A stretch of 64,000 nucleotides of DNA from TPA_inf: Saccharomyces (taxonomy: Eukaryota), in contig BK006938.2 of the NCBI GenBank assembly GCA_000146045.2, forward strand, positions 1,184,001-1,248,000, given 5' to 3'. The notes beneath the pieces were generated by a model, which saw only the letters and a program-made list of their open reading frames with translations, did not search any database and had not been told where the DNA came from. How positions within the stretch are numbered: the stretch's first letter is position 1; each line of letters opens with the position of its first letter. Position numbers and translations under genes: made by a program. Of this stretch, positions 14,894 through 29,614 are shown piece after piece.

Positions 14894-14906
14894 GGTTTTC
14901 GAACCG
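14894..14906 (-). promoter_or_regulatory. B-box-like TFIIIC binding site (GGTTCGAAAACCC on minus strand) in TFC6 promoter, i.e. the ETC6 autoregulatory site
   Basis: The sequence gggttttcgaacc on the plus strand is the reverse complement of a near-consensus B box (GGTTCGANTCC). It lies about 200 bp upstream of the TFC6 ATG. Confidence 0.55.
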
Positions 14907-16553: not shown

Positions 16554-17456
16554 GCGCAATTTGCTAAAAAAGGCCGAACTCCGGCTCTTTACGTGCCACA
16601 ATTATTATTTACTATGGGCGGCGGGTGTGTTGGTGGTGCTTGCGGTACTTGTAAAATATTTTCTGAATATAATTGAATAAGACCTTTTGTGTTTAAATCA
16701 TACTCGGGTAATTCTCTGTTCAAAAAGTAGGTGCTGACCCTCTTCTACCTTCCGTGAAATATTATAAAGGAATTTTTCCATCTCTAACTCAACATGTTAA
16801 CGCTTTTCTATAAAAATTTGATCGCCTAATGAATACAAAAATCTCTTCAGCTTTTTCGTGCTAGGTTTGAATAGTACATCTAACGTAGAACAACTATCAA
16901 AACAATTTGATATTTCCTCGGCTATAGTTTTCTTGGAACAAGAGGTAAACTACTTCTCTATTGTTGCTACAGCAGTCAATTAAAATAATTCGTTTCATCA
17001 TAATATTATGATATCAACGCTAAAAGGTTGTATAAATTACGAGATCAGCAGAAAATAAAATTCAAGCCATCATCCTTTAAGGTGATTTGAAGGGCAAGAA
17101 TTGGTAGTGTAACTGCATCAATGAGTGATTAGGTGAAAACGAAGAAAAATAATAAATATGGTACTGTGCAGAATTGTTGATTTTCTTTTTTGAACTCTAA
17201 ACCATCAAGAATGGCTTTCACCCACTATTGTTACACATAGTACTATTACTTACACCAAGATGGGATCCGACAAATATCTCAACACTATATTGGTCTACAT
17301 GCTTTATCGATTGCTCCTTATTTACGTATTTCTATAAATAGGGCGTACTTTACCAACAGTGATCATGGATGCAAAAAATGTGAATACATTTATATGGAAA
17401 AAAGGTTTATATCAATATATTTTAAAGTGATTGAAAATTACTGATGTGTTTGATAT

Positions 17457-17666
17457 TGTTGGAATAAGAATCAACCATCATATACCCGACTAACGTTCAT
17501 ATTATTAGTAAACTATCATATACAACCTAAGAAGTTGACATAAAGATTGACAAGCAGTTACCATTTTTAGTAGAAGTTGAAAAGCAAGAATTGATAACCA
17601 AATATTGTTTTCCAACAATGCAATCCCAACCCTATCTCAATATTCATAGAATTCACTTATTTCTCA
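17457..17666 (+). repeat. Degenerate, internally deleted solo delta (Ty1/Ty2 LTR) about 85 bp upstream of tRNA-Lys
   Basis: Starts TGTTGGAATAAGAATCAACCATCAT and ends ...CAACAATGCAATCCCAAC...TTATTTCTCA. It is collinear with the Ty1 LTRs at 22704 and 28288 but only about 210 bp long, with many substitutions. Confidence 0.7.
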
Positions 17667-17749
17667 GTTTAATACATGATGATGCATCTTGATATTGAGA
17701 AATTATATGTATTATCCCTTTTTAACCTTTAAAAGGTCACAAATAAATA

Positions 17750-17822
17750 GCCTTGTTGGCGCAATCGGTAGCGCGTATGACTCTTAATCATAAGGTTAGG
17801 GGTTCGAGCCCCCTACAGGGCT
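17750..17822 (+). tRNA. tK(CUU): tRNA-Lys (anticodon CUU), intronless, 73 nt
   Basis: GCCTTGTTGGCGCAATCGGTAGCGCGTATGACTCTTAATCATAAGGTTAGGGGTTCGAGCCCCCTACAGGGCT. The acceptor stem pairs correctly, the anticodon loop is CT-CTT-AA, the A box is at 17757-17768 and the B box GGTTCGAGCCC is at 17801-17811. Confidence 0.95.
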
Positions 17823-17847
17823 AATAACACATTCAAAATGTTATAAA

Positions 17848-20496: not shown

Positions 20497-22383
20497 TTAA
20501 ACCTTTACCTTCTTGGATGATTTGCTTTTCTTTTTCAACTTGTTTACCAAGTTACCAATATCTTCATTATCATCTGCGTTATTGGTCATATTGTTTTCAC
20601 TACCGCCAAGTTTTCTTTTCTTATTCTTAACACGTTTACTACGTTCTTTTAGGATTTTACTCATAGCTTGTGTACCTTTGAATTCAGGCTGGGTCGGGTC
20701 GATAGCAAAATCGTGATCTTCGAAGACTTCTTTAAATCTAGGATCTTCTAAATCAGGTGTAAAGGTGTCTTCAACAATTCTCTCTTTCTTTTGATACCGG
20801 CCTTTCTTGTGTTTTTCTTTTTCTGATCTTAAGATTTCGTTCATGTTGAAATGTGCTTTGTTATTTATTGTGCCCTGAGTTTCGGTATCATCATCATCAT
20901 CCATTAAAAGCTCCAATTCAGCCTTTGATTTGGCATTCTTTTCGATCTCCTCTTCATCGTTAGTATGCTTTTTATTAACAGATTTCAACTTGCTTTTCTT
21001 ATCCTTCTCCGACTGCTGTTTCAATTCCTTTACTTTCTGCTTTCTTGCTTTACGACGTTCCTTCTCTTTTCTTCTTATTTTCTCTATAGTCGTTTCTTCT
21101 TTGTCTTCCGACGATTTCTCGTTTCCTCCTTCCAAGGCTGGAGTAAATGTAATTTCCATATCAACTTCTTCATCTTCATCGTTAGGGGTTTCTTTCTTGG
21201 AATTAAACCCAAAGTCACCAACCAACGACTTTAGTTTATTTTTCGCCTCTTCATCGACCTGCCCATCCGATTCATCACTATCTGACGCCAAGTAAGCCTT
21301 AAAGTCCATATCATCAATTTCCTTTTGGGTAAAGGCCCTCTTAGCAACTTCGACCCTATCAGCTGGCGTTTCATCCCAGGTCAATTTGACGCTTGAATGT
21401 TGTAGAGCATCTGTGCTAAACTGGTGTGGCCTATAGTTCTTAGGCAATATACTGCATTCATCTCTTACATCATCATCAAAAGTCATACCATCAGGAACAT
21501 ACCTTAAATCGAACATATTAGCGGTTGACTCATATTCGGTACCATCACAGTTATCATAGATAGCTTTGGAGGTGGTTGTATCACTACAATAAACTATTGC
21601 GTAATAATATCTTAATCTGTCCAACTGGTATTGACGTAAAGCTCTGGAATCCACGTCCTTGTCAGCATCTCCCTCTTCATAAAGATCCTTAATACCGATG
21701 TCCATATCAGAATCAGAGTCATCAGTTTTCTTCTTTTTGGAGGTTTTGTTCTTATTTTTCTTTTGGAAAAGTTCCTTTGGAGGTCCTTCAACTTCCTCGC
21801 GTTGCATTCTTTCTTTACCAAATTCACTTGGATAAATAGCAACTCTTTCAATTTTACCACCTTTAGGAACGAAACTGGAAAAGGTAATCATCAAATCCTC
21901 AGATTTAACATGGTCCCAATCTAAATTTACGACGGCCAAATTCTTAGAGATGTCACCAGATTCTGGTTTGGCATTTTCAATTTCTACTTCATTTTCTTCT
22001 TCGCTTTCAACTTCACTTTCTCCGGACGATTCAGAATCAGAAGAAGTGAATTCATCAGAAGAGCTAACATAATCATCAGGAACTTCACCACGGGCACGGT
22101 CCACTACTGTTTTCGCATTAACTTCTGAATCTTCATCATTTTCTGCTTCCTTTTCGAAATATTTGTCGAAATCTTCCAATTCCCTGTTATTCTGCGCATT
22201 TTTGATCTTTCTACCATACTTGTCAACCTTAGATTTATGCTGGACCTCCAGATCCTTCTTACTGAACCTAGAATCTAACTTGATCTTATGATCTTTGGTT
22301 TTCGTGTTCTTAAATTTAGGATCGCTGTAGATCCCGGCAAACCTAGCATCTACACCTTCCTTCTTTGGGTTCTCTCCAGCCAT
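20497..22383 (-). CDS. ESF1: Nucleolar 18S rRNA biogenesis protein, 628 aa from MAGENPKKEG
   Basis: The ORF track gives 634 aa from an upstream Met. Known Esf1 starts at MAGENPKK. The protein is highly charged K/E/D-rich. Confidence 0.82.
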   Translation of the reverse strand: MAGENPKKEGVDARFAGIYSDPKFKNTKTKDHKIKLDSRFSKKDLEVQHKSKVDKYGRKIKNAQNNRELEDFDKYFEKEAENDEDSEVNAKTVVDRARGEVPDDYVSSSDEFTSSDSESSGESEVESEEENEVEIENAKPESGDISKNLAVVNLDWDHVKSEDLMITFSSFVPKGGKIERVAIYPSEFGKERMQREEVEGPPKELFQKKNKNKTSKKKKTDDSDSDMDIGIKDLYEEGDADKDVDSRALRQYQLDRLRYYYAIVYCSDTTTSKAIYDNCDGTEYESTANMFDLRYVPDGMTFDDDVRDECSILPKNYRPHQFSTDALQHSSVKLTWDETPADRVEVAKRAFTQKEIDDMDFKAYLASDSDESDGQVDEEAKNKLKSLVGDFGFNSKKETPNDEDEEVDMEITFTPALEGGNEKSSEDKEETTIEKIRRKEKERRKARKQKVKELKQQSEKDKKSKLKSVNKKHTNDEEEIEKNAKSKAELELLMDDDDDTETQGTINNKAHFNMNEILRSEKEKHKKGRYQKKERIVEDTFTPDLEDPRFKEVFEDHDFAIDPTQPEFKGTQAMSKILKERSKRVKNKKRKLGGSENNMTNNADDNEDIGNLVNKLKKKSKSSKKVKV

Positions 22384-22703
22384 CTTCAATTTTTCTTGCA
22401 ACCTTATACGATCCGCTGAAATGTCTTGAAAAATATTCCGGACCCACAGTTATGTGATATTTATTATTTGTACCATTATGCTAATGATGAATTTGAGATG
22501 AGATGAGATGAAATTTTTTCTGTAACTGAAAAATTTCGGAACGTCAATAATGATCGGTAGCCTCATCTGGGATATTTGGCCCGGCTCATATTGCTAATCT
22601 TTGGATATAGGGCTATTAGCAGATTTCAATCGTCCTCTCTTGGCATAGTAGACACAGAGTTGTATTTGCGCTTCTGAGCGATGCTTCCGAGATTGTTGAA
22701 GCA

Positions 22704-23037
22704 TGTTGGAATAGAAATCAACTATCATCTACTAACTAGTATTTACATTACTAGTATATTATCATATACGGTGTTAGAAGATGACGCAAATGATGAGAAA
22801 TAGTCATCTAAATTAGTGGAAGCTGAAACGCAAGGATTGATAATGTAATAGGATCAATGAATATAAACATATAAAATGATGATAATAATATTTATAGAAT
22901 TGTGTAGAATTGCAGATTCCCTTTTATGGATTCCTAAATCCTTGAGGAGAACTTCTAGTATATTCTGTATACCTAATATTATAGCCTTTATCAACAATGG
23001 AATCCCAACAATTATCTCAACATTCACCCATTTCTCA
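22704..23037 (+). repeat. Ty1 5' LTR (delta), 334 bp
   Basis: TGTTGGAATAGAAATCAACTATC...CATTCACCCATTTCTCA. The TYA ATG lies inside the LTR at 22997, as in Ty1. Confidence 0.9.
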
Positions 23038-24319
23038 TGGTAGCGCCTGTGCTTCGGTTACTTCTAAGGAAGTCCACACAAATCAAGATCCGTTAGACGT
23101 TTCAGCTTCCAAAACAGAAGAATGTGAGAAGGCTTCCACTAAGGCTAACTCTCAACAGACAACAACACCTGCTTCATCAGCTGTTCCAGAGAACCCCCAT
23201 CATGCCTCTCCTCAACCTGCTTCAGTACCACCTCCACAGAATGGGCCGTACCCACAGCAGTGCATGATGACCCAAAACCAAGCCAATCCATCTGGTTGGT
23301 CATTTTACGGACACCCATCTATGATTCCGTATACACCTTATCAAATGTCGCCTATGTACTTTCCACCTGGGCCACAATCACAGTTTCCGCAGTATCCATC
23401 ATCAGTTGGAACGCCTCTGAGCACTCCATCACCTGAGTCAGGTAATACATTTACTGATTCATCCTCAGCGGACTCTGATATGACATCCACTAAAAAATAT
23501 GTCAGACCACCACCAATGTTAACCTCACCTAATGACTTTCCAAATTGGGTTAAAACATACATCAAATTTTTACAAAACTCGAATCTCGGTGGTATTATTC
23601 CGACAGTAAACGGAAAACCCGTACGTCAGATCACTGATGATGAACTCACCTTCTTGTATAACACTTTTCAAATATTTGCTCCCTCTCAATTCCTACCTAC
23701 CTGGGTCAAAGACATCCTATCCGTTGATTATACGGATATCATGAAAATTCTTTCCAAAAGTATTGAAAAAATGCAATCTGATACCCAAGAGGCAAACGAC
23801 ATTGTGACCCTGGCAAATTTGCAATATAATGGCAGTACACCTGCAGATGCATTTGAAACAAAAGTCACAAACATTATCGACAGACTGAACAATAATGGCA
23901 TTCATATCAATAACAAGGTCGCATGCCAATTAATTATGAGAGGTCTATCTGGCGAATATAAATTTTTACGCTACACACGTCATCGACATCTAAATATGAC
24001 AGTCGCTGAACTGTTCTTAGATATCCATGCTATTTATGAAGAACAACAGGGATCGAGAAACAGCAAACCTAATTACAGGAGAAATCTGAGTGATGAGAAG
24101 AATGATTCTCGCAGCTATACGAATACAACCAAACCCAAAGTTATAGCTCGGAATCCTCAAAAAACAAATAATTCGAAATCGAAAACAGCCAGGGCTCACA
24201 ATGTATCCACATCTAATAACTCTCCCAGCACGGACAACGATTCCATCAGTAAATCAACTACTGAACCGATTCAATTGAACAATAAGCACGACCTTCACCT
24301 TAGGCCAGGAACTTACTGA
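22997..24319 (+). CDS. TYA: Ty1 TYA (Gag capsid protein), 440 aa
   Basis: [32 protein letters not shown]... matches Ty1 Gag. It ends ...HLRPGTY immediately after the frameshift heptamer. Confidence 0.95.
23038..23047 (+). other. Ty1 minus-strand primer binding site (TGGTAGCGCC, complementary to the initiator tRNA-Met 3' end)
   Basis: The 10-nt PBS lies immediately after the 5' LTR end. Confidence 0.7.
24299..24305 (+). other. Ty1 +1 programmed ribosomal frameshift heptamer CUU-AGG-C
   Basis: CTTAGGC sits in the TYA frame 5 codons before the TYA stop. The downstream +1 frame is open through pol. Confidence 0.85.
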
Positions 24320-27300
24320 ATCTACGGTAAATCACACTAATCATTCTGATGATGAACTCCCTGGACACCTCCTTCTCGATTCAGGAGCATCACGAACCCT
24401 TATAAGATCTGCTCATCACATACACTCAGCATCATCTAATCCTGACATAAACGTAGTTGATGCTCAAAAAAGAAATATACCAATTAACGCTATTGGTGAC
24501 CTACAATTTCACTTCCAGGACAACACCAAAACATCAATAAAGGTATTGCACACTCCTAACATAGCCTATGACTTACTCAGTTTGAATGAATTGGCTGCAG
24601 TAGATATCACAGCATGCTTTACCAAAAACGTCTTAGAACGATCTGACGGCACTGTACTTGCACCTATCGTACAATATGGAGACTTTTACTGGGTATCTAA
24701 AAGGTACTTGCTTCCATCAAATATCTCCGTACCCACCATCAATAATGTCCATACAAGTGAAAGTACACGCAAATATCCTTATCCTTTCATTCATCGAATG
24801 CTTGCGCATGCCAATGCACAGACAATTCGATACTCACTTAAAAATAACACCATCACGTATTTTAACGAATCAGATGTCGACTGGTCTAGTGCTATTGACT
24901 ATCAATGTCCTGATTGTTTAATCGGCAAAAGCACCAAACACAGACATATCAAAGGTTCACGACTAAAATACCAAAATTCATACGAACCCTTTCAATACCT
25001 ACATACTGACATATTTGGTCCAGTTCACAACCTACCAAATAGTGCACCATCCTATTTCATCTCATTTACTGATGAGACAACAAAATTCCGTTGGGTTTAT
25101 CCATTACACGACCGTCGCGAGGACTCTATCCTCGATGTTTTTACTACGATACTAGCTTTTATTAAGAACCAGTTTCAGGCCAGTGTCTTGGTTATACAAA
25201 TGGACCGTGGTTCTGAGTATACTAACAGAACTCTCCATAAATTCCTTGAAAAAAATGGTATAACTCCATGCTATACAACCACAGCGGATTCCCGAGCACA
25301 TGGAGTCGCTGAACGGCTAAACCGTACCTTATTAGATGACTGCCGTACTCAACTGCAATGTAGTGGTTTACCGAACTATTTATGGTTCTCTGCAATCGAA
25401 TTTTCTACTATTGTGAGAAATTCACTAGCTTCACCTAAAAGCAAAAAATCTGCAAGACAACATGCTGGCTTGGCAGGACTTGATATCAGTACTTTGTTAC
25501 CTTTCGGTCAACCTGTTATCGTCAATGATCACAACCCTAACTCCAAAATACATCCTCGTGGCATCCCAGGCTACGCTCTACATCCGTCTCGAAACTCTTA
25601 TGGATATATCATCTATCTTCCATCCTTAAAGAAGACAGTAGATACAACTAACTATGTTATTCTTCAGGGCAAGGAATCCAGATTAGATCAATTCAATTAC
25701 GACGCACTCACTTTCGATGAAGACTTAAACCGTTTAACTGCTTCATATCATTCGTTCATTGCGTCAAATGAGATCCAAGAATCCAATGATCTTAACATAG
25801 AATCTGACCATGACTTCCAATCCGACATTGAACTACATCCTGAGCAACCGAGAAATGTCCTTTCAAAAGCTGTGAGTCCAACCGATTCCACACCTCCGTC
25901 AACTCATACTGAAGATTCGAAACGTGTTTCTAAAACCAATATTCGCGCACCCAGAGAAGTTGACCCCAACATATCTGAATCTAATATTCTTCCATCAAAG
26001 AAGAGATCTAGCACCCCCCAAATTTCCAATATCGAGAGTACCGGTTCGGGTGGTATGCATAAATTAAATGTTCCTTTACTTGCTCCCATGTCCCAATCTA
26101 ACACACATGAGTCGTCGCACGCCAGTAAATCTAAAGATTTCAGACACTCAGACTCGTACAGTGAAAATGAGACTAATCATACAAACGTACCAATATCCAG
26201 TACGGGTGGTACCAACAACAAAACTGTTCCGCAGATAAGTGACCAAGAGACTGAGAAAAGGATTATACACCGTTCACCTTCAATCGATGCTTCTCCACCG
26301 GAAAATAATTCATCGCACAATATTGTTCCTATCAAAACGCCAACTACTGTTTCTGAACAGAATACCGAGGAATCTATCATCGCTGATCTCCCACTCCCTG
26401 ATCTACCTCCAGAATCTCCTACCGAATTCCCTGACCCATTTAAAGAACTCCCACCGATAAATTCTCGTCAAACTAATTCCAGTTTGGGTGGTATTGGTGA
26501 CTCTAATGCCTATACTACTATCAACAGTAAGAAAAGATCATTAGAAGATAATGAAACTGAAATTAAGGTATCACGAGACACATGGAATACTAAGAATATG
26601 CGTAGTTTAGAACCTCCGAGATCGAAGAAACGAATTCACCTGATTGCAGCTGTAAAAGCAGTAAAATCAATCAAACCAATACGGACAACCTTACGATACG
26701 ATGAGGCAATCACCTATAATAAAGATATTAAAGAAAAAGAAAAATATATCGAGGCATACCACAAAGAAGTCAATCAACTGTTGAAGATGAAAACTTGGGA
26801 CACTGACGAATATTATGACAGAAAAGAAATAGACCCTAAAAGAGTAATAAACTCAATGTTTATCTTCAACAAGAAACGTGACGGTACTCATAAAGCTAGA
26901 TTTGTTGCAAGAGGTGATATTCAGCATCCTGACACTTACGACTCAGGCATGCAATCCAATACCGTACATCACTATGCATTAATGACATCCCTGTCACTTG
27001 CATTAGACAATAACTACTATATTACACAATTAGACATATCTTCGGCATATTTGTATGCAGACATCAAAGAAGAATTATACATAAGACCTCCACCACATTT
27101 AGGAATGAATGATAAGTTGATACGTTTGAAGAAATCACTTTATGGATTGAAACAAAGTGGAGCGAACTGGTACGAAACTATCAAATCATACCTGATACAA
27201 CAATGTGGTATGGAAGAAGTTCGTGGATGGTCATGCGTATTTAAAAACAGTCAAGTGACAATTTGTTTATTCGTAGATGATATGGTATTGTTTAGCAAAA

Positions 27301-28265
27301 ATCTAAATTCAAACAAAAGAATTATAGAGAAGCTTAAGATGCAATACGACACCAAGATTATAAATCTAGGCGAAAGTGATGAGGAAATTCAATATGACAT
27401 ACTTGGCTTAGAAATCAAATATCAAAGAGGTAAATACATGAAATTAGGTATGGAAAACTCATTAACTGAGAAAATACCCAAATTAAACGTACCTTTGAAT
27501 CCAAAAGGAAGAAAACTTAGCGCTCCAGGTCAACCAGGTCTTTATATAGACCAGGATGAACTAGAAATAGATGAAGATGAATACAAAGAGAAGGTACATG
27601 AAATGCAAAAGTTGATTGGTCTAGCTTCATATGTTGGATATAAATTTAGATTTGACTTACTATACTACATCAACACACTTGCTCAACATATACTATTCCC
27701 CTCTAGGCAAGTTTTAGACATGACATATGAGTTAATACAATTCATGTGGGACACTAGAGATAAACAATTAATATGGCACAAAAACAAACCTACCAAGCCA
27801 GATAATAAACTAGTCGCAATAAGCGATGCTTCATATGGTAACCAACCATATTACAAGTCACAAATTGGTAACATTTTCCTACTCAACGGAAAAGTGATTG
27901 GAGGAAAGTCGACAAAGGCTTCGTTAACATGCACTTCAACTACAGAAGCAGAAATACACGCAGTCAGTGAAGCTATACCGCTATTGAATAACCTCAGTCA
28001 CCTTGTGCAAGAACTTAACAAGAAACCAATTATTAAAGGCTTACTTACTGATAGTAGATCAACGATCAGTATAATTAAGTCTACAAATGAAGAGAAATTT
28101 AGAAACAGATTTTTTGGCACAAAGGCAATGAGACTTAGAGATGAAGTATCAGGTAATAATTTATACGTATACTACATCGAGACCAAGAAGAACATTGCTG
28201 ATGTGATGACAAAACCTCTTCCGATAAAAACATTTAAACTATTAACTAACAAATGGATTCATTAG
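24303..28265 (+). CDS. TYB: Ty1 TYB (Pol: protease DSGAS, integrase HHCC/DDE, reverse transcriptase with the YXDD-type motif FVDD, RNase H), expressed only as a TYA-TYB fusion via +1 frameshift
   Basis: The +1 frame is open from the frameshift site. The [10 protein letters not shown] protease motif lies upstream of the first ATG at 24546, and the [11 protein letters not shown] motif is near 27270. The C-terminal RNase H region ends at 28265. Confidence 0.9.
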
Positions 28266-28278
28266 ATCTATTACATTA

Positions 28279-28287
28279 TGGGTGGTA
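28279..28287 (+). other. Ty1 polypurine tract (TGGGTGGTA) abutting the 3' LTR
   Basis: A purine-rich tract lies directly 5' of TGTTGG at 28288. Confidence 0.6.
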
Positions 28288-28621
28288 TGTTGGAATAGAA
28301 ATCAACTATCATCTACTAACTAGTATTTACATTACTAGTATATTATCATATACGGTGTTAGAAGATGACGCAAATGATGAGAAATAGTCATCTAAATTAG
28401 TGGAAGCTGAAACGCAAGGATTGATAATGTAATAGGATCAATGAATATAAACATATAAAATGATGATAATAATATTTATAGAATTGTGTAGAATTGCAGA
28501 TTCCCTTTTATGGATTCCTAAATCCTTGAGGAGAACTTCTAGTATATTCTGTATACCTAATATTATAGCCTTTATCAACAATGGAATCCCAACAATTATC
28601 TCAACATTCACATATTTCTCA
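28288..28621 (+). repeat. Ty1 3' LTR (delta), 334 bp
   Basis: Identical to the 5' LTR except for 2 substitutions near the 3' end (CACATATTTCTCA versus CACCCATTTCTCA). Confidence 0.9.
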
Positions 28622-28836
28622 AAGCATATATGTAGTATATATACATATACATATATATATTTATATAGGTTTGGGAACCTATGTTTTTTATTGTACCAAA
28701 CGCATCCCTCTTCAATAATCTTCGAAAAAAAAGTGCACAACAAGCGGGAAAATCTGTGTAAAGCTGTATAAGTGATCTGTACAAAAACTACGAAGAAAAG
28801 AAATAATACCAGGGAGGAACTACCAATTGTAACCAT
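28438..28836 (-). CDS. Dubious 132-aa ORF (YDR366C-like) half inside the Ty1 3' LTR; AT-rich, low complexity
   Basis: 132-aa ORF from the six-frame track. It overlaps LTR sequence and has no recognisable domain or codon bias. Confidence 0.2.
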
Positions 28837-28847
28837 TAACCTTAGTT

Positions 28848-29614
28848 ATGAGATCATCTCTTCTAACCCTTCCAAAAGTATGTTTCCGGCAAACGCTATA
28901 AATTTTTGTTAACTTGTAAGGATTCGAAGCAAAGCACAATTTTACTAACCTGTTCTCAAACATATTTTTTTTTCATAGTCTTTTTTGGGGTTTATGCCGC
29001 TATACCTTGCAGTTGAGATTGTCTTAGGTATTTCCATTCTAAACAAATGCAGTGGTGCTTATGGTATTTTAGCATTGTTCACGGGTCATCCGTTGGATTT
29101 TATGCAATGGATAGCATATCTTTGGTCGGTATTTACATTAATCGTATTCTCACAAGGGCTGTATTTGATTCATAAGCCAAACTTGCTGGTATTTTCGCAA
29201 ATCTGCGTACTTTATACAATCGATACCATTTCCACTTGTTTTTTTACTCTATGGTTTACCACGCAATGGTTCACCTTGGAAGACACTGCTAATATTGATG
29301 GAAATAATGCACTACAAAGTAACCCAATATCGACAGGTAAGCTGACAGAACGTGGTATTGATATAAGTAAACAAAGTGCAACTGAAAGCTACGAATATAC
29401 CATGACTATTTTAATTACGTTGGTGTCATTGATATTCAGGTTCTACTTTAACTTCATTTTGGCATCTTTTGTTCAAGAATTGTTACACCACCCCAAATAT
29501 TTAGTTGATAGGGATGACGTAGAACAAAACTTGAAAAACAAGCCTATTTGGAAAAGACTGTGGGCTAAGAGCCAAAAAGGTTGTTATAAGCTATGTAAGA
29601 ATTTGTTAGAGTAA
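28848..29614 (+). CDS. KEI1: Kex2-cleavable Golgi membrane protein, spliced: exon 1 28848-28877 (10 codons, MRSSLLTLPK), intron 28878-28978, exon 2 28979-29614; 221 aa
   Basis: GTATGT donor at 28878, TACTAAC branch point at 28943-28949 and a CATAG acceptor ending at 28978. Exon 2 joins in frame to the 209-aa ORF MGFMPLYLAVE... Confidence 0.8.

Follow-up and report, generated by a model that had tools for sequence, protein, structure and literature searches.

Ty1 insertions at the 5' ends of Pol II genes are known from ROAM alleles such as CYC7-H2 and from his4-912 and his4-917. In ROAM alleles, activation by the Ty depends on its 5' end lying beside a divergently transcribed gene. Selection can yield Ty1 insertions that either activate Pol II genes or inactivate them (PMC3553992). 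Of the Ty1 insertions that arise de novo, about 90% lie upstream of class III genes and about 5% in Pol II genes; where an ORF is about 5 kb away from tRNA genes, its few Ty1 insertions were recovered at its 5' end (PMC3545840).

The element analysed here, YDRWTy1-5, is contained in a 64-kb stretch of Saccharomyces DNA (referred to as the window; all positions are window positions). It resembles the usual Ty1 insertions in family, in LTR sequence type and in the 5-bp duplication mechanism, but its nearest tRNA gene is 4.9 kb away and has the element on its downstream side, and the element lies between two Pol II promoters. In its placement at Pol II promoters it is similar to the selected insertions at CAN1 and URA3 and to ROAM alleles. 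Those alleles differ from YDRWTy1-5 in having been recovered under selection and in having measured expression phenotypes. It is very probable that a recent, single integration of YDRWTy1-5, found only in S288C, not targeted by Pol III and tolerated at its site, explains the locus as a whole. The element is a clean case of the minority of Ty1 integrations that are not Pol III-directed, with a precise empty site and two essential flanking genes.

Structure and identity of the element

YDRWTy1-5 comprises 5,918 bp (22704-28621, + strand) and is a structurally intact Ty1/copia LTR retrotransposon. Copies of the target-site duplication (TSD) AAGCA flank it on the left (22699-22703) and on the right (28622-28626). 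The 5' LTR (delta; 22704-23037, +; 334 bp, TGTTGG...TCTCA) holds the TYA ATG at 22997. The 3' LTR (28288-28621, +) also measures 334 bp. Both have TG...CA termini and agree at 332 of 334 positions, the sole difference being located at LTR positions 325-326, where the 5' LTR has CC and the 3' LTR has AT (28612-28613). The two LTRs are non-identical, whereas a fresh insertion would predict identity. The CC/AT difference coincides with variation (Gag P11 versus H11) that S288C Ty1 copies already carry, so it is not necessarily a sign of age. Immediately downstream of the 5' LTR lies TGGTAGCGCC (23038-23047, +), its single occurrence in the window, which we take to be the canonical Ty1 PBS, complementary to the 3' end of initiator tRNA-Met. 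PPT1, TGGGTGGTA, adjoins the 3' LTR (28279-28287, +), and a sequence match to it represents the central PPT copy (26485-26493, +).

The +1 frameshift heptamer CTTAGGC is present in one copy in the whole element (24299-24305, +). TYA1 (gag, YDR365W-A; 22997-24319, +) encodes 440 residues and matches the Pfam family TYA with E=1.8e-232. TYB1 (pol; 24303-28265, +) is read in the +1 frame past the shift; this frame is open from 24279, and together with gag it forms YDR365W-B. Translation of gag codons 1-435 followed by TYB resulted in a Gag-Pol of 1,755 amino acids with zero internal stops. Its Pfam matches are TYA, Pol_BBD (459-533, protease barrel), rve (663-763) and RVT_2 (1281-1487), in this order. 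RNase H gave no Pfam match in Gag-Pol, and its presence is deduced from the full-length identity to the annotated Ty1 Gag-Pol. The protease DSG motif, the D,D-35-E context of integrase and the FVDD motif of reverse transcriptase can be read directly from the protein. The bipartite NLS of integrase and the AC40-contact motif KNMRSL were also found (comparison with PMC7459421). The element thus combines the attributes of a Ty1: LTRs of about 334 bp with TG...CA ends, a 5-bp TSD, the placement of PBS and PPT, gag-pol expression by a +1 shift at CUU-AGG-C and the order PR-IN-RT-RH. A preliminary description of this DNA had proposed an intact Ty1 with all cis elements (LTRs, PBS, PPT and CTTAGGC), open Gag and Pol frames, 334-bp LTRs with two differences and an AAGCA duplication. 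All of this was confirmed, and neither re-inspection of the TSD nor translation of TYB, which is free of frameshifts and stops, gave reason to regard the element as defective.

The 1,755-residue Gag-Pol is letter-for-letter identical to UniProt P0C2I3 / NP_058152.1, annotated as "Transposon Ty1-DR6" from S288C chrIV, and the 440-residue Gag is an exact match to the "Transposon Ty1-DR6 Gag polyprotein" (exact protein look-up). Carr, Bensasson & Bergman 2012 (PMC3511429, File S2) list YDRWTy1-5 at chrIV 1206697-1212614 (+) as Full and Active. Their chrIV coordinates are converted to window positions by subtraction of a constant offset of 1,183,993, and the length of their entry is the 5,918 bp observed here. 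Since the Gag and Gag-Pol sequences, length, strand, neighbours and position agree without any difference, both are the same object: the element at 22704-28621 is the catalogued chromosome IV Ty1 of S288C, YDRWTy1-5, with the ORFs YDR365W-A and YDR365W-B. The preliminary description did not name it as this annotated reference element. "Active" is a phylogenetic label in Carr et al. 2012 (PMC3511429); judged from its intact sequence, YDRWTy1-5 may be mobile today.

Both the element and its strain specificity are already known, having long been annotated or published, and contain nothing new. The significance of finding it is accordingly small, as the reference-genome annotation is old and the strain specificity is in print. 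YDRWTy1-5 serves as a named breakpoint in studies of chromosome IV rearrangements, and as a 5.9-kb block of dispersed homology it is of practical value in this role (PMC3102749).

With regard to the assignment to Ty1 or Ty2, Carr et al. (PMC3511429) use a 1-bp deletion that is carried by the Ty2 LTR and not by the Ty1 LTR. The assignment to Ty1 follows from the identity of Gag with the Ty1-DR6 Gag and from the label TY1 in Carr et al. (PMC3511429), the comparison having been made with Ty1 sequences. Gag-Pol shares 98-99% identity with those of the S288C Ty1 copies JR1, JR2, GR2 and ER1. A Ty1/Ty2 hybrid with a Ty2-like 3' part of pol (RNase H) was considered and dropped: when the protein was aligned to Gag-Pol of five further S288C Ty1 elements, the variant in question proved to be the majority form among S288C Ty1.

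Empty site and mode of insertion

In ten other S. cerevisiae chrIV assemblies (L001-L010) the site is empty without exception. KEI1 and ESF1 are separated by about 541 bp that contain no LTR, and the flanking gene order is collinear in all ten. Three assemblies (L003, L006, L009) contain exactly the 541-bp sequence predicted by removing the Ty1 and one AAGCA. A single AAGCA is present at the empty site in L003, L005, L006, L009 and L010, and TAGCA is found in L001, L002, L004, L007 and L008. The independent assembly GCA_010356935.1 contains the same occupied locus, with 100% identity across 10.5 kb. According to File S2 of Carr et al. 2012 (PMC3511429), YDRWTy1-5 occurs in 1 of 19 strains with data and belongs to the class "s288c". 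With the ten assemblies and the 18 strains in which Carr et al. 2012 scored the element as absent as the sample, the insertion is recent and limited to the S288C lineage. The strain polymorphism that had been anticipated for this locus is borne out by these data.

A match between 5-bp flanks is expected by chance in about 1/1024 cases, and the empty sites confirm the duplication on independent grounds. Because the two TSD copies match and the empty site of other strains is free of LTRs and has one AAGCA, the element results from a single, simple integration, as the preliminary description had argued. In mechanistic terms, one integrase-mediated event would have placed the Ty1 cDNA at AAGCA in the 541-bp ESF1-KEI1 intergenic region, duplicating AAGCA. 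The dinucleotide difference between the LTRs could be taken as a sign of a recombinant or converted site instead, generated either by cDNA entering a pre-existing solo LTR or by ectopic exchange of two Ty1 copies. It matches a variant on other S288C Ty1 copies, which would be explained if recombination or gene conversion had touched one LTR, or if the cDNA had been derived from two different co-packaged RNAs. Such a site is, however, hard to reconcile with the identical 5-bp repeats on both sides of YDRWTy1-5, with the LTR-free empty sites of ten strains, which provide no recombination partner, and with a gene order around the locus that is collinear with all other strains. We consider this explanation extremely improbable, and for the insertion event itself a recombinant origin is essentially refuted.

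Position relative to Pol III genes

The sole Pol III gene detected in the 64-kb window is tRNA-Lys(CUU), tK(CUU), at 17749-17823 (+). ARAGORN and Rfam at gathering thresholds yielded no further Pol III gene in the whole 64 kb, and a lenient Rfam search (E<=1) of the region from 19 to 33 kb resulted in one spurious miRNA match in TA-rich DNA and no Pol III RNA. The distance from tK(CUU) to the 5' LTR is 4,881 bp, with the Ty1 on the 3' (downstream) side of the tRNA gene. YDRWTy1-5 therefore lies outside the typical context of Pol III-targeted insertions, at most about 1 kb upstream of a Pol III gene, which is usual and not defining. At this distance and with its downstream side facing the Ty1, tK(CUU) is not the targeting cue. 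The preliminary description had given the distance correctly as about 4.9 kb; this distance is not an anomaly, as a minority of Ty1 insertions away from Pol III genes is known (PMC3545840). No special cue is needed, since about 10% of new Ty1 insertions fall outside the zones upstream of Pol III genes, the distant ones at the 5' ends of genes. YDRWTy1-5 would belong to this minority, here between the 5' ends of two Pol II genes, and we infer that its target choice was not Pol III-directed.

We also considered whether a site near ESF1-KEI1 that is bound by Pol III or TFIIIC but not annotated had tethered the Ty1 integrase via AC40. The integrase of YDRWTy1-5 does keep an intact AC40-binding motif (compared with PMC7459421). 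A candidate for such a site is GCTTCGAATCC, a 10/11 B-box match on the minus strand of the KEI1 intron (28920-28930), 294 bp from the insertion point. B-box-like matches occur in the window at chance level, however (7 observed versus 5.95 expected, a count that 42 of 100 shuffles also reach), and the mismatch of GCTTCGAATCC affects the second G of the GGTTCGANNCC consensus, a conserved B-box position. In addition, a minus-strand unit at GCTTCGAATCC would put the Ty1 downstream, whereas Ty1 inserts upstream. Neither ARAGORN nor Rfam, even at E<=1, found a tRNA or another Pol III RNA near the site. Fixed delta relics mark the genuine target zone at tK(CUU), whereas here the 10 strains with an empty site show no solo LTR relic. 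ETC6 in the TFC6 promoter, the closest site bound by TFIIIC alone, lies at a distance of about 7.8 kb; PMC3395662 describes ETC sites as bound by TFIIIC with no recruitment of RNA polymerase. Tethering by a hidden Pol III site is thus very unlikely, and integration without a Pol III cue remains our preferred explanation.

A BLAST search of the window with the LTR and the whole element revealed other Ty or LTR copies solely as relics upstream of tK(CUU). A degenerate, internally deleted solo delta (17457-17666, +) is located about 80-290 bp upstream of the tRNA gene, and a further delta fragment was found at 17088-17284. File S2 of Carr et al. (PMC3511429) contains a solo, fixed Ty1 LTR at chrIV 1201450-1201590 (window 17457-17597). 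The zone holding the degenerate solo delta is a normal Ty1 target zone.

Flanking genes and MOR1

ESF1 and KEI1 are both essential. ESF1 (YDR365C; 20497-22383, -; 628 amino acids) is divergent from the Ty1, and its ATG at 22383 is 320 bp away from the 5' LTR. KEI1 (YDR367W; 28848-29614, +; 221 amino acids) consists of exon 1 (28848-28877), an intron (28878-28978) and exon 2 (28979-29614). It has the same orientation as the Ty1, with a distance of 226 bp from the end of the 3' LTR to its ATG (28848). Protein look-up gave exact matches to S288C proteins for ESF1, CDC40, YPR1, KEI1 and TFC6 in the window. The placement between the divergent genes ESF1 and KEI1, the spacing of about 320 bp to ESF1 and the orientation of KEI1 had been described correctly; the 227 bp given for KEI1 was off by one. 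The insertion was presumably tolerated, each neighbour keeping its proximal promoter (320 bp for ESF1, 226 bp for KEI1), and YDRWTy1-5 is presumably neutral for the neighbouring genes. A literature search found no paper linking KEI1 and Ty1.

MOR1 (YDR366C; 28438-28836, -; 132 amino acids) begins in unique DNA and ends within the antisense 3' LTR. The antisense strand of the 3' LTR encodes its C-terminal 60 residues, among them a hydrophobic stretch.

With respect to ESF1 the Ty1 is divergent, like activating alleles, and with respect to KEI1 it is in tandem, like promoter-interference alleles. Both genes may be under the influence of the Ty1 enhancer or LTR. As the 5' end of the Ty1 faces divergent ESF1, the geometry of activating ROAM alleles fits ESF1 and not KEI1, for which the preliminary description had suggested a possible Ty-type regulation. 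The geometry at ESF1 would suit an insertion that was favoured, not just tolerated. Such an insertion would have altered the expression of its neighbours, through the Ty enhancer at ESF1 or through a promoter or uORF of the 3' LTR at KEI1, or it would have been favoured for creating the 132-residue MOR1. The 3' LTR is 226 bp upstream of the KEI1 ATG, and MOR1, for which an overexpression phenotype has been reported (PMC6683748), gains 60 LTR-encoded residues. The restriction of the insertion to one laboratory lineage, on the other hand, is consistent with drift in a bottlenecked lab strain. Ty1 enhancer elements are located inside TYA beside the 5' LTR, which makes the 3' LTR alone a weak promoter, and a transcript initiated in the 3' LTR would place a 45-codon uORF, beginning at the TYA ATG, before KEI1. 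A favoured insertion is therefore distinctly unlikely, and we retain the tolerated integration.

It is also unlikely that the S288C-only Ty1 rewired the locus via the chimeric MOR1 with an as yet unreported biological consequence; if true, such rewiring would be relevant to work in the reference strain. As predicted from the sequence, the 132-residue MOR1 would be replaced in strains lacking the Ty1 by a 95-residue ORF with a different tail. The annotations of MOR1/YDR366C and of the promoters of KEI1 and ESF1 apply to the S288C lineage only and should not be transferred to other strains.

Structure and identity of the element

The Ty1 element between ESF1 (minus strand) and KEI1 (plus strand) has a length of 5,918 bp (22704–28621). 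It is bounded by two direct repeats of 334 bp, the 5' LTR (22704–23037) and the 3' LTR (28288–28621), each with a TGTTGG start and a TCTCA end. The only mismatch between them is at repeat positions 325–326, where the left copy has CC and the right copy AT. A target-site duplication, AAGCA, directly adjoins the element on both sides (22699–22703 and 28622–28626). The ten bases right after the left LTR are the Ty1 primer-binding site TGGTAGCGCC, which occurs only once in the window. The polypurine tract TGGGTGGTA occupies the nine bases right before the 3' LTR, and a second, central copy is found at 26485–26493.

The gag frame (22997–24319) encodes 440 residues. The pol frame, shifted by +1 relative to gag, is open from 24279 to 28265. 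Both frames were fused at CTT-A-GGC, the single copy of the frameshift heptamer CTTAGGC (24299), yielding a protein of 1,755 residues with zero internal stops. According to Pfam, its domains are ordered as TYA capsid domain, protease barrel, integrase core and copia-type reverse transcriptase. The C-terminus of the integrase retains both KKR motifs, 29 residues apart, as well as the KNMRSL segment, in which K617 and M619–L622 are required for binding the Pol III subunit AC40 (Asif-Laidin et al., PMC7459421). The preliminary description of two LTRs with two differences, an AAGCA duplication at both ends, intact priming and frameshift sites and open Gag and Pol frames is therefore correct.

Over its full length, Gag-Pol is identical to NP_058152.1 (UniProt P0C2I3, "Transposon Ty1-DR6 Gag-Pol polyprotein", S. 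cerevisiae S288C). Gag is identical to that of Ty1-DR6, a sequence common to several further S288C Ty1 copies. The neighbors ESF1, CDC40, YPR1, KEI1 and TFC6 also match S288C proteins exactly. File S2 of Carr, Bensasson & Bergman 2012 (PMC3511429) contains the entry "chrIV 1206697-1212614 + YDRWTy1-5 Full Active", also of 5,918 bp. Window and published coordinates differ by a constant offset of 1,183,993, and the same offset places a fixed solo Ty1 LTR from that study (1201450–1201590) on a delta (Ty1 LTR) relic found by BLAST (17457–17597). Based on the exact protein matches and the matching entry, we identify the element by its sequence as the annotated reference Ty1 YDRWTy1-5 (YDR365W-A/B). 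This annotation is long-standing, and published work already reports the strain specificity of the element. Chan & Kolodner 2011 (PMC3102749) also name YDRWTy1-5 as a breakpoint at which translocations and duplications recur.

Empty sites and the LTR difference

For comparison we used ten further assemblies of S. cerevisiae chromosome IV (L001–L010), found via contigs encoding an identical ESF1 protein. The spacing between KEI1 and ESF1 is approximately 541 bp in all ten, and neither a Ty nor a solo LTR is present between the two genes in any of them. When Ty1 and one of the two AAGCA copies are removed from the window sequence, the resulting 541 bp are found exactly in three assemblies (L003, L006 and L009); L010 holds the exact 50-bp junction of the empty site. 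The search for an empty site that had been suggested earlier thus revealed a single AAGCA, or the variant TAGCA, without an LTR (eight aligned loci: L001–L005, L007, L008 and L010). Among the 19 strains for which Carr et al. 2012 (PMC3511429) had data, they scored YDRWTy1-5 as present in one and assigned it to class "s288c". Together with the ten empty assemblies this confirms the assumed strain polymorphism. The only occupied site found elsewhere, via the exact MOR1 protein, is in GCA_010356935.1. Its identity of 100% over 10.5 kb marks this assembly as an S288C derivative.

An element of this kind could also arise by recombination of cDNA into an older LTR or by ectopic exchange between genomic copies. 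Both routes are excluded by the matching duplication and the LTR-free empty sites, in line with the initial reading of a simple integration rather than a recombinant. Sequence comparison supports one simple, recent, lineage-specific integration of YDRWTy1-5.

The CC/AT mismatch (23028–23029 vs 28612–28613) lies within U5 and in the 5' LTR encodes Gag residue 11. This residue is Pro11 (CCC) in YDRWTy1-5 (DR6) and Ty1-ER1, and His11 (CAT), the sequence of the YDRWTy1-5 3' LTR, in Ty1-JR1, JR2 and GR2. Given this split, the two LTR "substitutions" are a pre-existing variant that is already segregating among S288C Ty1 copies. The mismatch more likely stems from template switching between two different co-packaged RNAs during reverse transcription, or from later gene conversion, than from two independent point mutations. 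With a circulating variant as its only source, LTR divergence would be unfit for dating YDRWTy1-5 and would misjudge its age.

A TA-rich stretch, ATATATGTAGTATATATACATATACATATATATATTTATATA (28627–28670), adjoins the insertion point. Its length differs among strains in the alignment of these loci, and it gave a spurious sub-threshold Rfam miRNA match (28610–28684).

Position relative to Pol III genes

Both ARAGORN and Rfam detected tRNA-Lys(CUU), tK(CUU) (17749–17823, plus strand), as the sole tRNA gene in the 64 kb. The Ty1 element starts 4,881 bp past its 3' end, close to the approximately 4.9 kb estimated previously, and SEM1, CDC40 and ESF1 intervene. Ty1 targeting is confined to ~1 kb on the upstream side of a Pol III gene (PMC3545840), so tK(CUU) is ruled out as the cue for the full-length element, which is on its 3' side. 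Two degenerate, partly deleted solo delta relics found by BLAST are located ~80–290 bp (17457–17666) and ~465–660 bp (17088–17284) upstream of tK(CUU), which is the expected landing zone of Pol III-targeted Ty1. The relic starting at 17457 is listed as a fixed solo Ty1 LTR (Carr et al. 2012, PMC3511429).

A lenient Rfam scan for Pol III RNAs between 19 and 33 kb returned nothing relevant. Scanning the window for B boxes gave 7 matches vs 5.95 expected by chance, one of them being the B box of tK(CUU) itself with its palindromic partner. A second match, the B-box-like sequence GGTTCGAAAAC (14895–14905, minus strand), precedes the TFC6 ATG (14697) by ~200 bp at 7.8 kb from Ty1 and is consistent with ETC6, a published TFIIIC-only site that autoregulates TFC6 (PMC3334521). 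A third, GCTTCGAATCC (28920–28930, minus strand), agrees with 10 of 11 consensus positions and is situated within the intron of KEI1, at a distance of 294 bp to the insertion point. Ty1 is on its downstream side, which is the wrong orientation for Ty1 targeting. A hidden Pol III unit near Ty1 is thus unsupported by ARAGORN, Rfam or the chance-level B-box scan.

According to a commentary on two saturating integration maps, ~90% of de novo Ty1 insertions occur on the 5' side of class III genes, and Pol II genes receive ~5%; in ORFs ~5 kb from a tRNA gene, events are few and located at the gene 5' end (PMC3545840). S288C has 32 full-length Ty1 copies (PMC5911963; PMC3511429), so at this rate a few copies outside Pol III zones are expected. 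YDRWTy1-5, between the two divergent 5' ends of ESF1 and KEI1, probably belongs to this minor class. Its distance from the tRNA gene falls within known Ty1 behavior.

Neighboring genes and a chimeric reading frame

ESF1 retains 320 bp upstream of its ATG, as originally proposed. The 3' LTR was correctly located upstream of the KEI1 ATG, but the measured distance is 226 bp instead of 227 bp. In ROAM and promoter-insertion alleles, Ty-dependent activation needs the 5' end of the Ty to face the divergently transcribed gene. ESF1 has this arrangement. When a Ty or delta precedes a gene in the same orientation, interference is more frequent. A copy of the TYA ATG in the 3' LTR (28581) opens a 45-codon ORF (28581–28718) reaching the KEI1 upstream region, which would serve as an upstream ORF on any KEI1 transcript initiated in the 3' LTR. 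A search for a link between KEI1 and Ty1 found no paper in the literature collection that was covered.

The minus-strand ORF MOR1/YDR366C (28438–28836, 132 residues) matches NP_010654.3 (Mor1p/YDR366C) exactly and runs antisense across the KEI1 promoter and 5' region. Residues 1–70 originate from unique DNA, residues 71–72 span the target-site duplication and the coding sequence for residues 73–132 is the Ty1 3' LTR read in antisense. The name Mor1 was given following a screen in which its overexpression led to partial rescue of dnm1-delta mitochondrial morphology (Bykov et al. 2019, PMC6683748). In the empty-site strains L003, L006 and L009 the same ATG opens a predicted ORF of 95 residues with a different C-terminal tail. 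Because YDRWTy1-5 is found only in S288c, the 132-residue form is confined to the S288c lineage.
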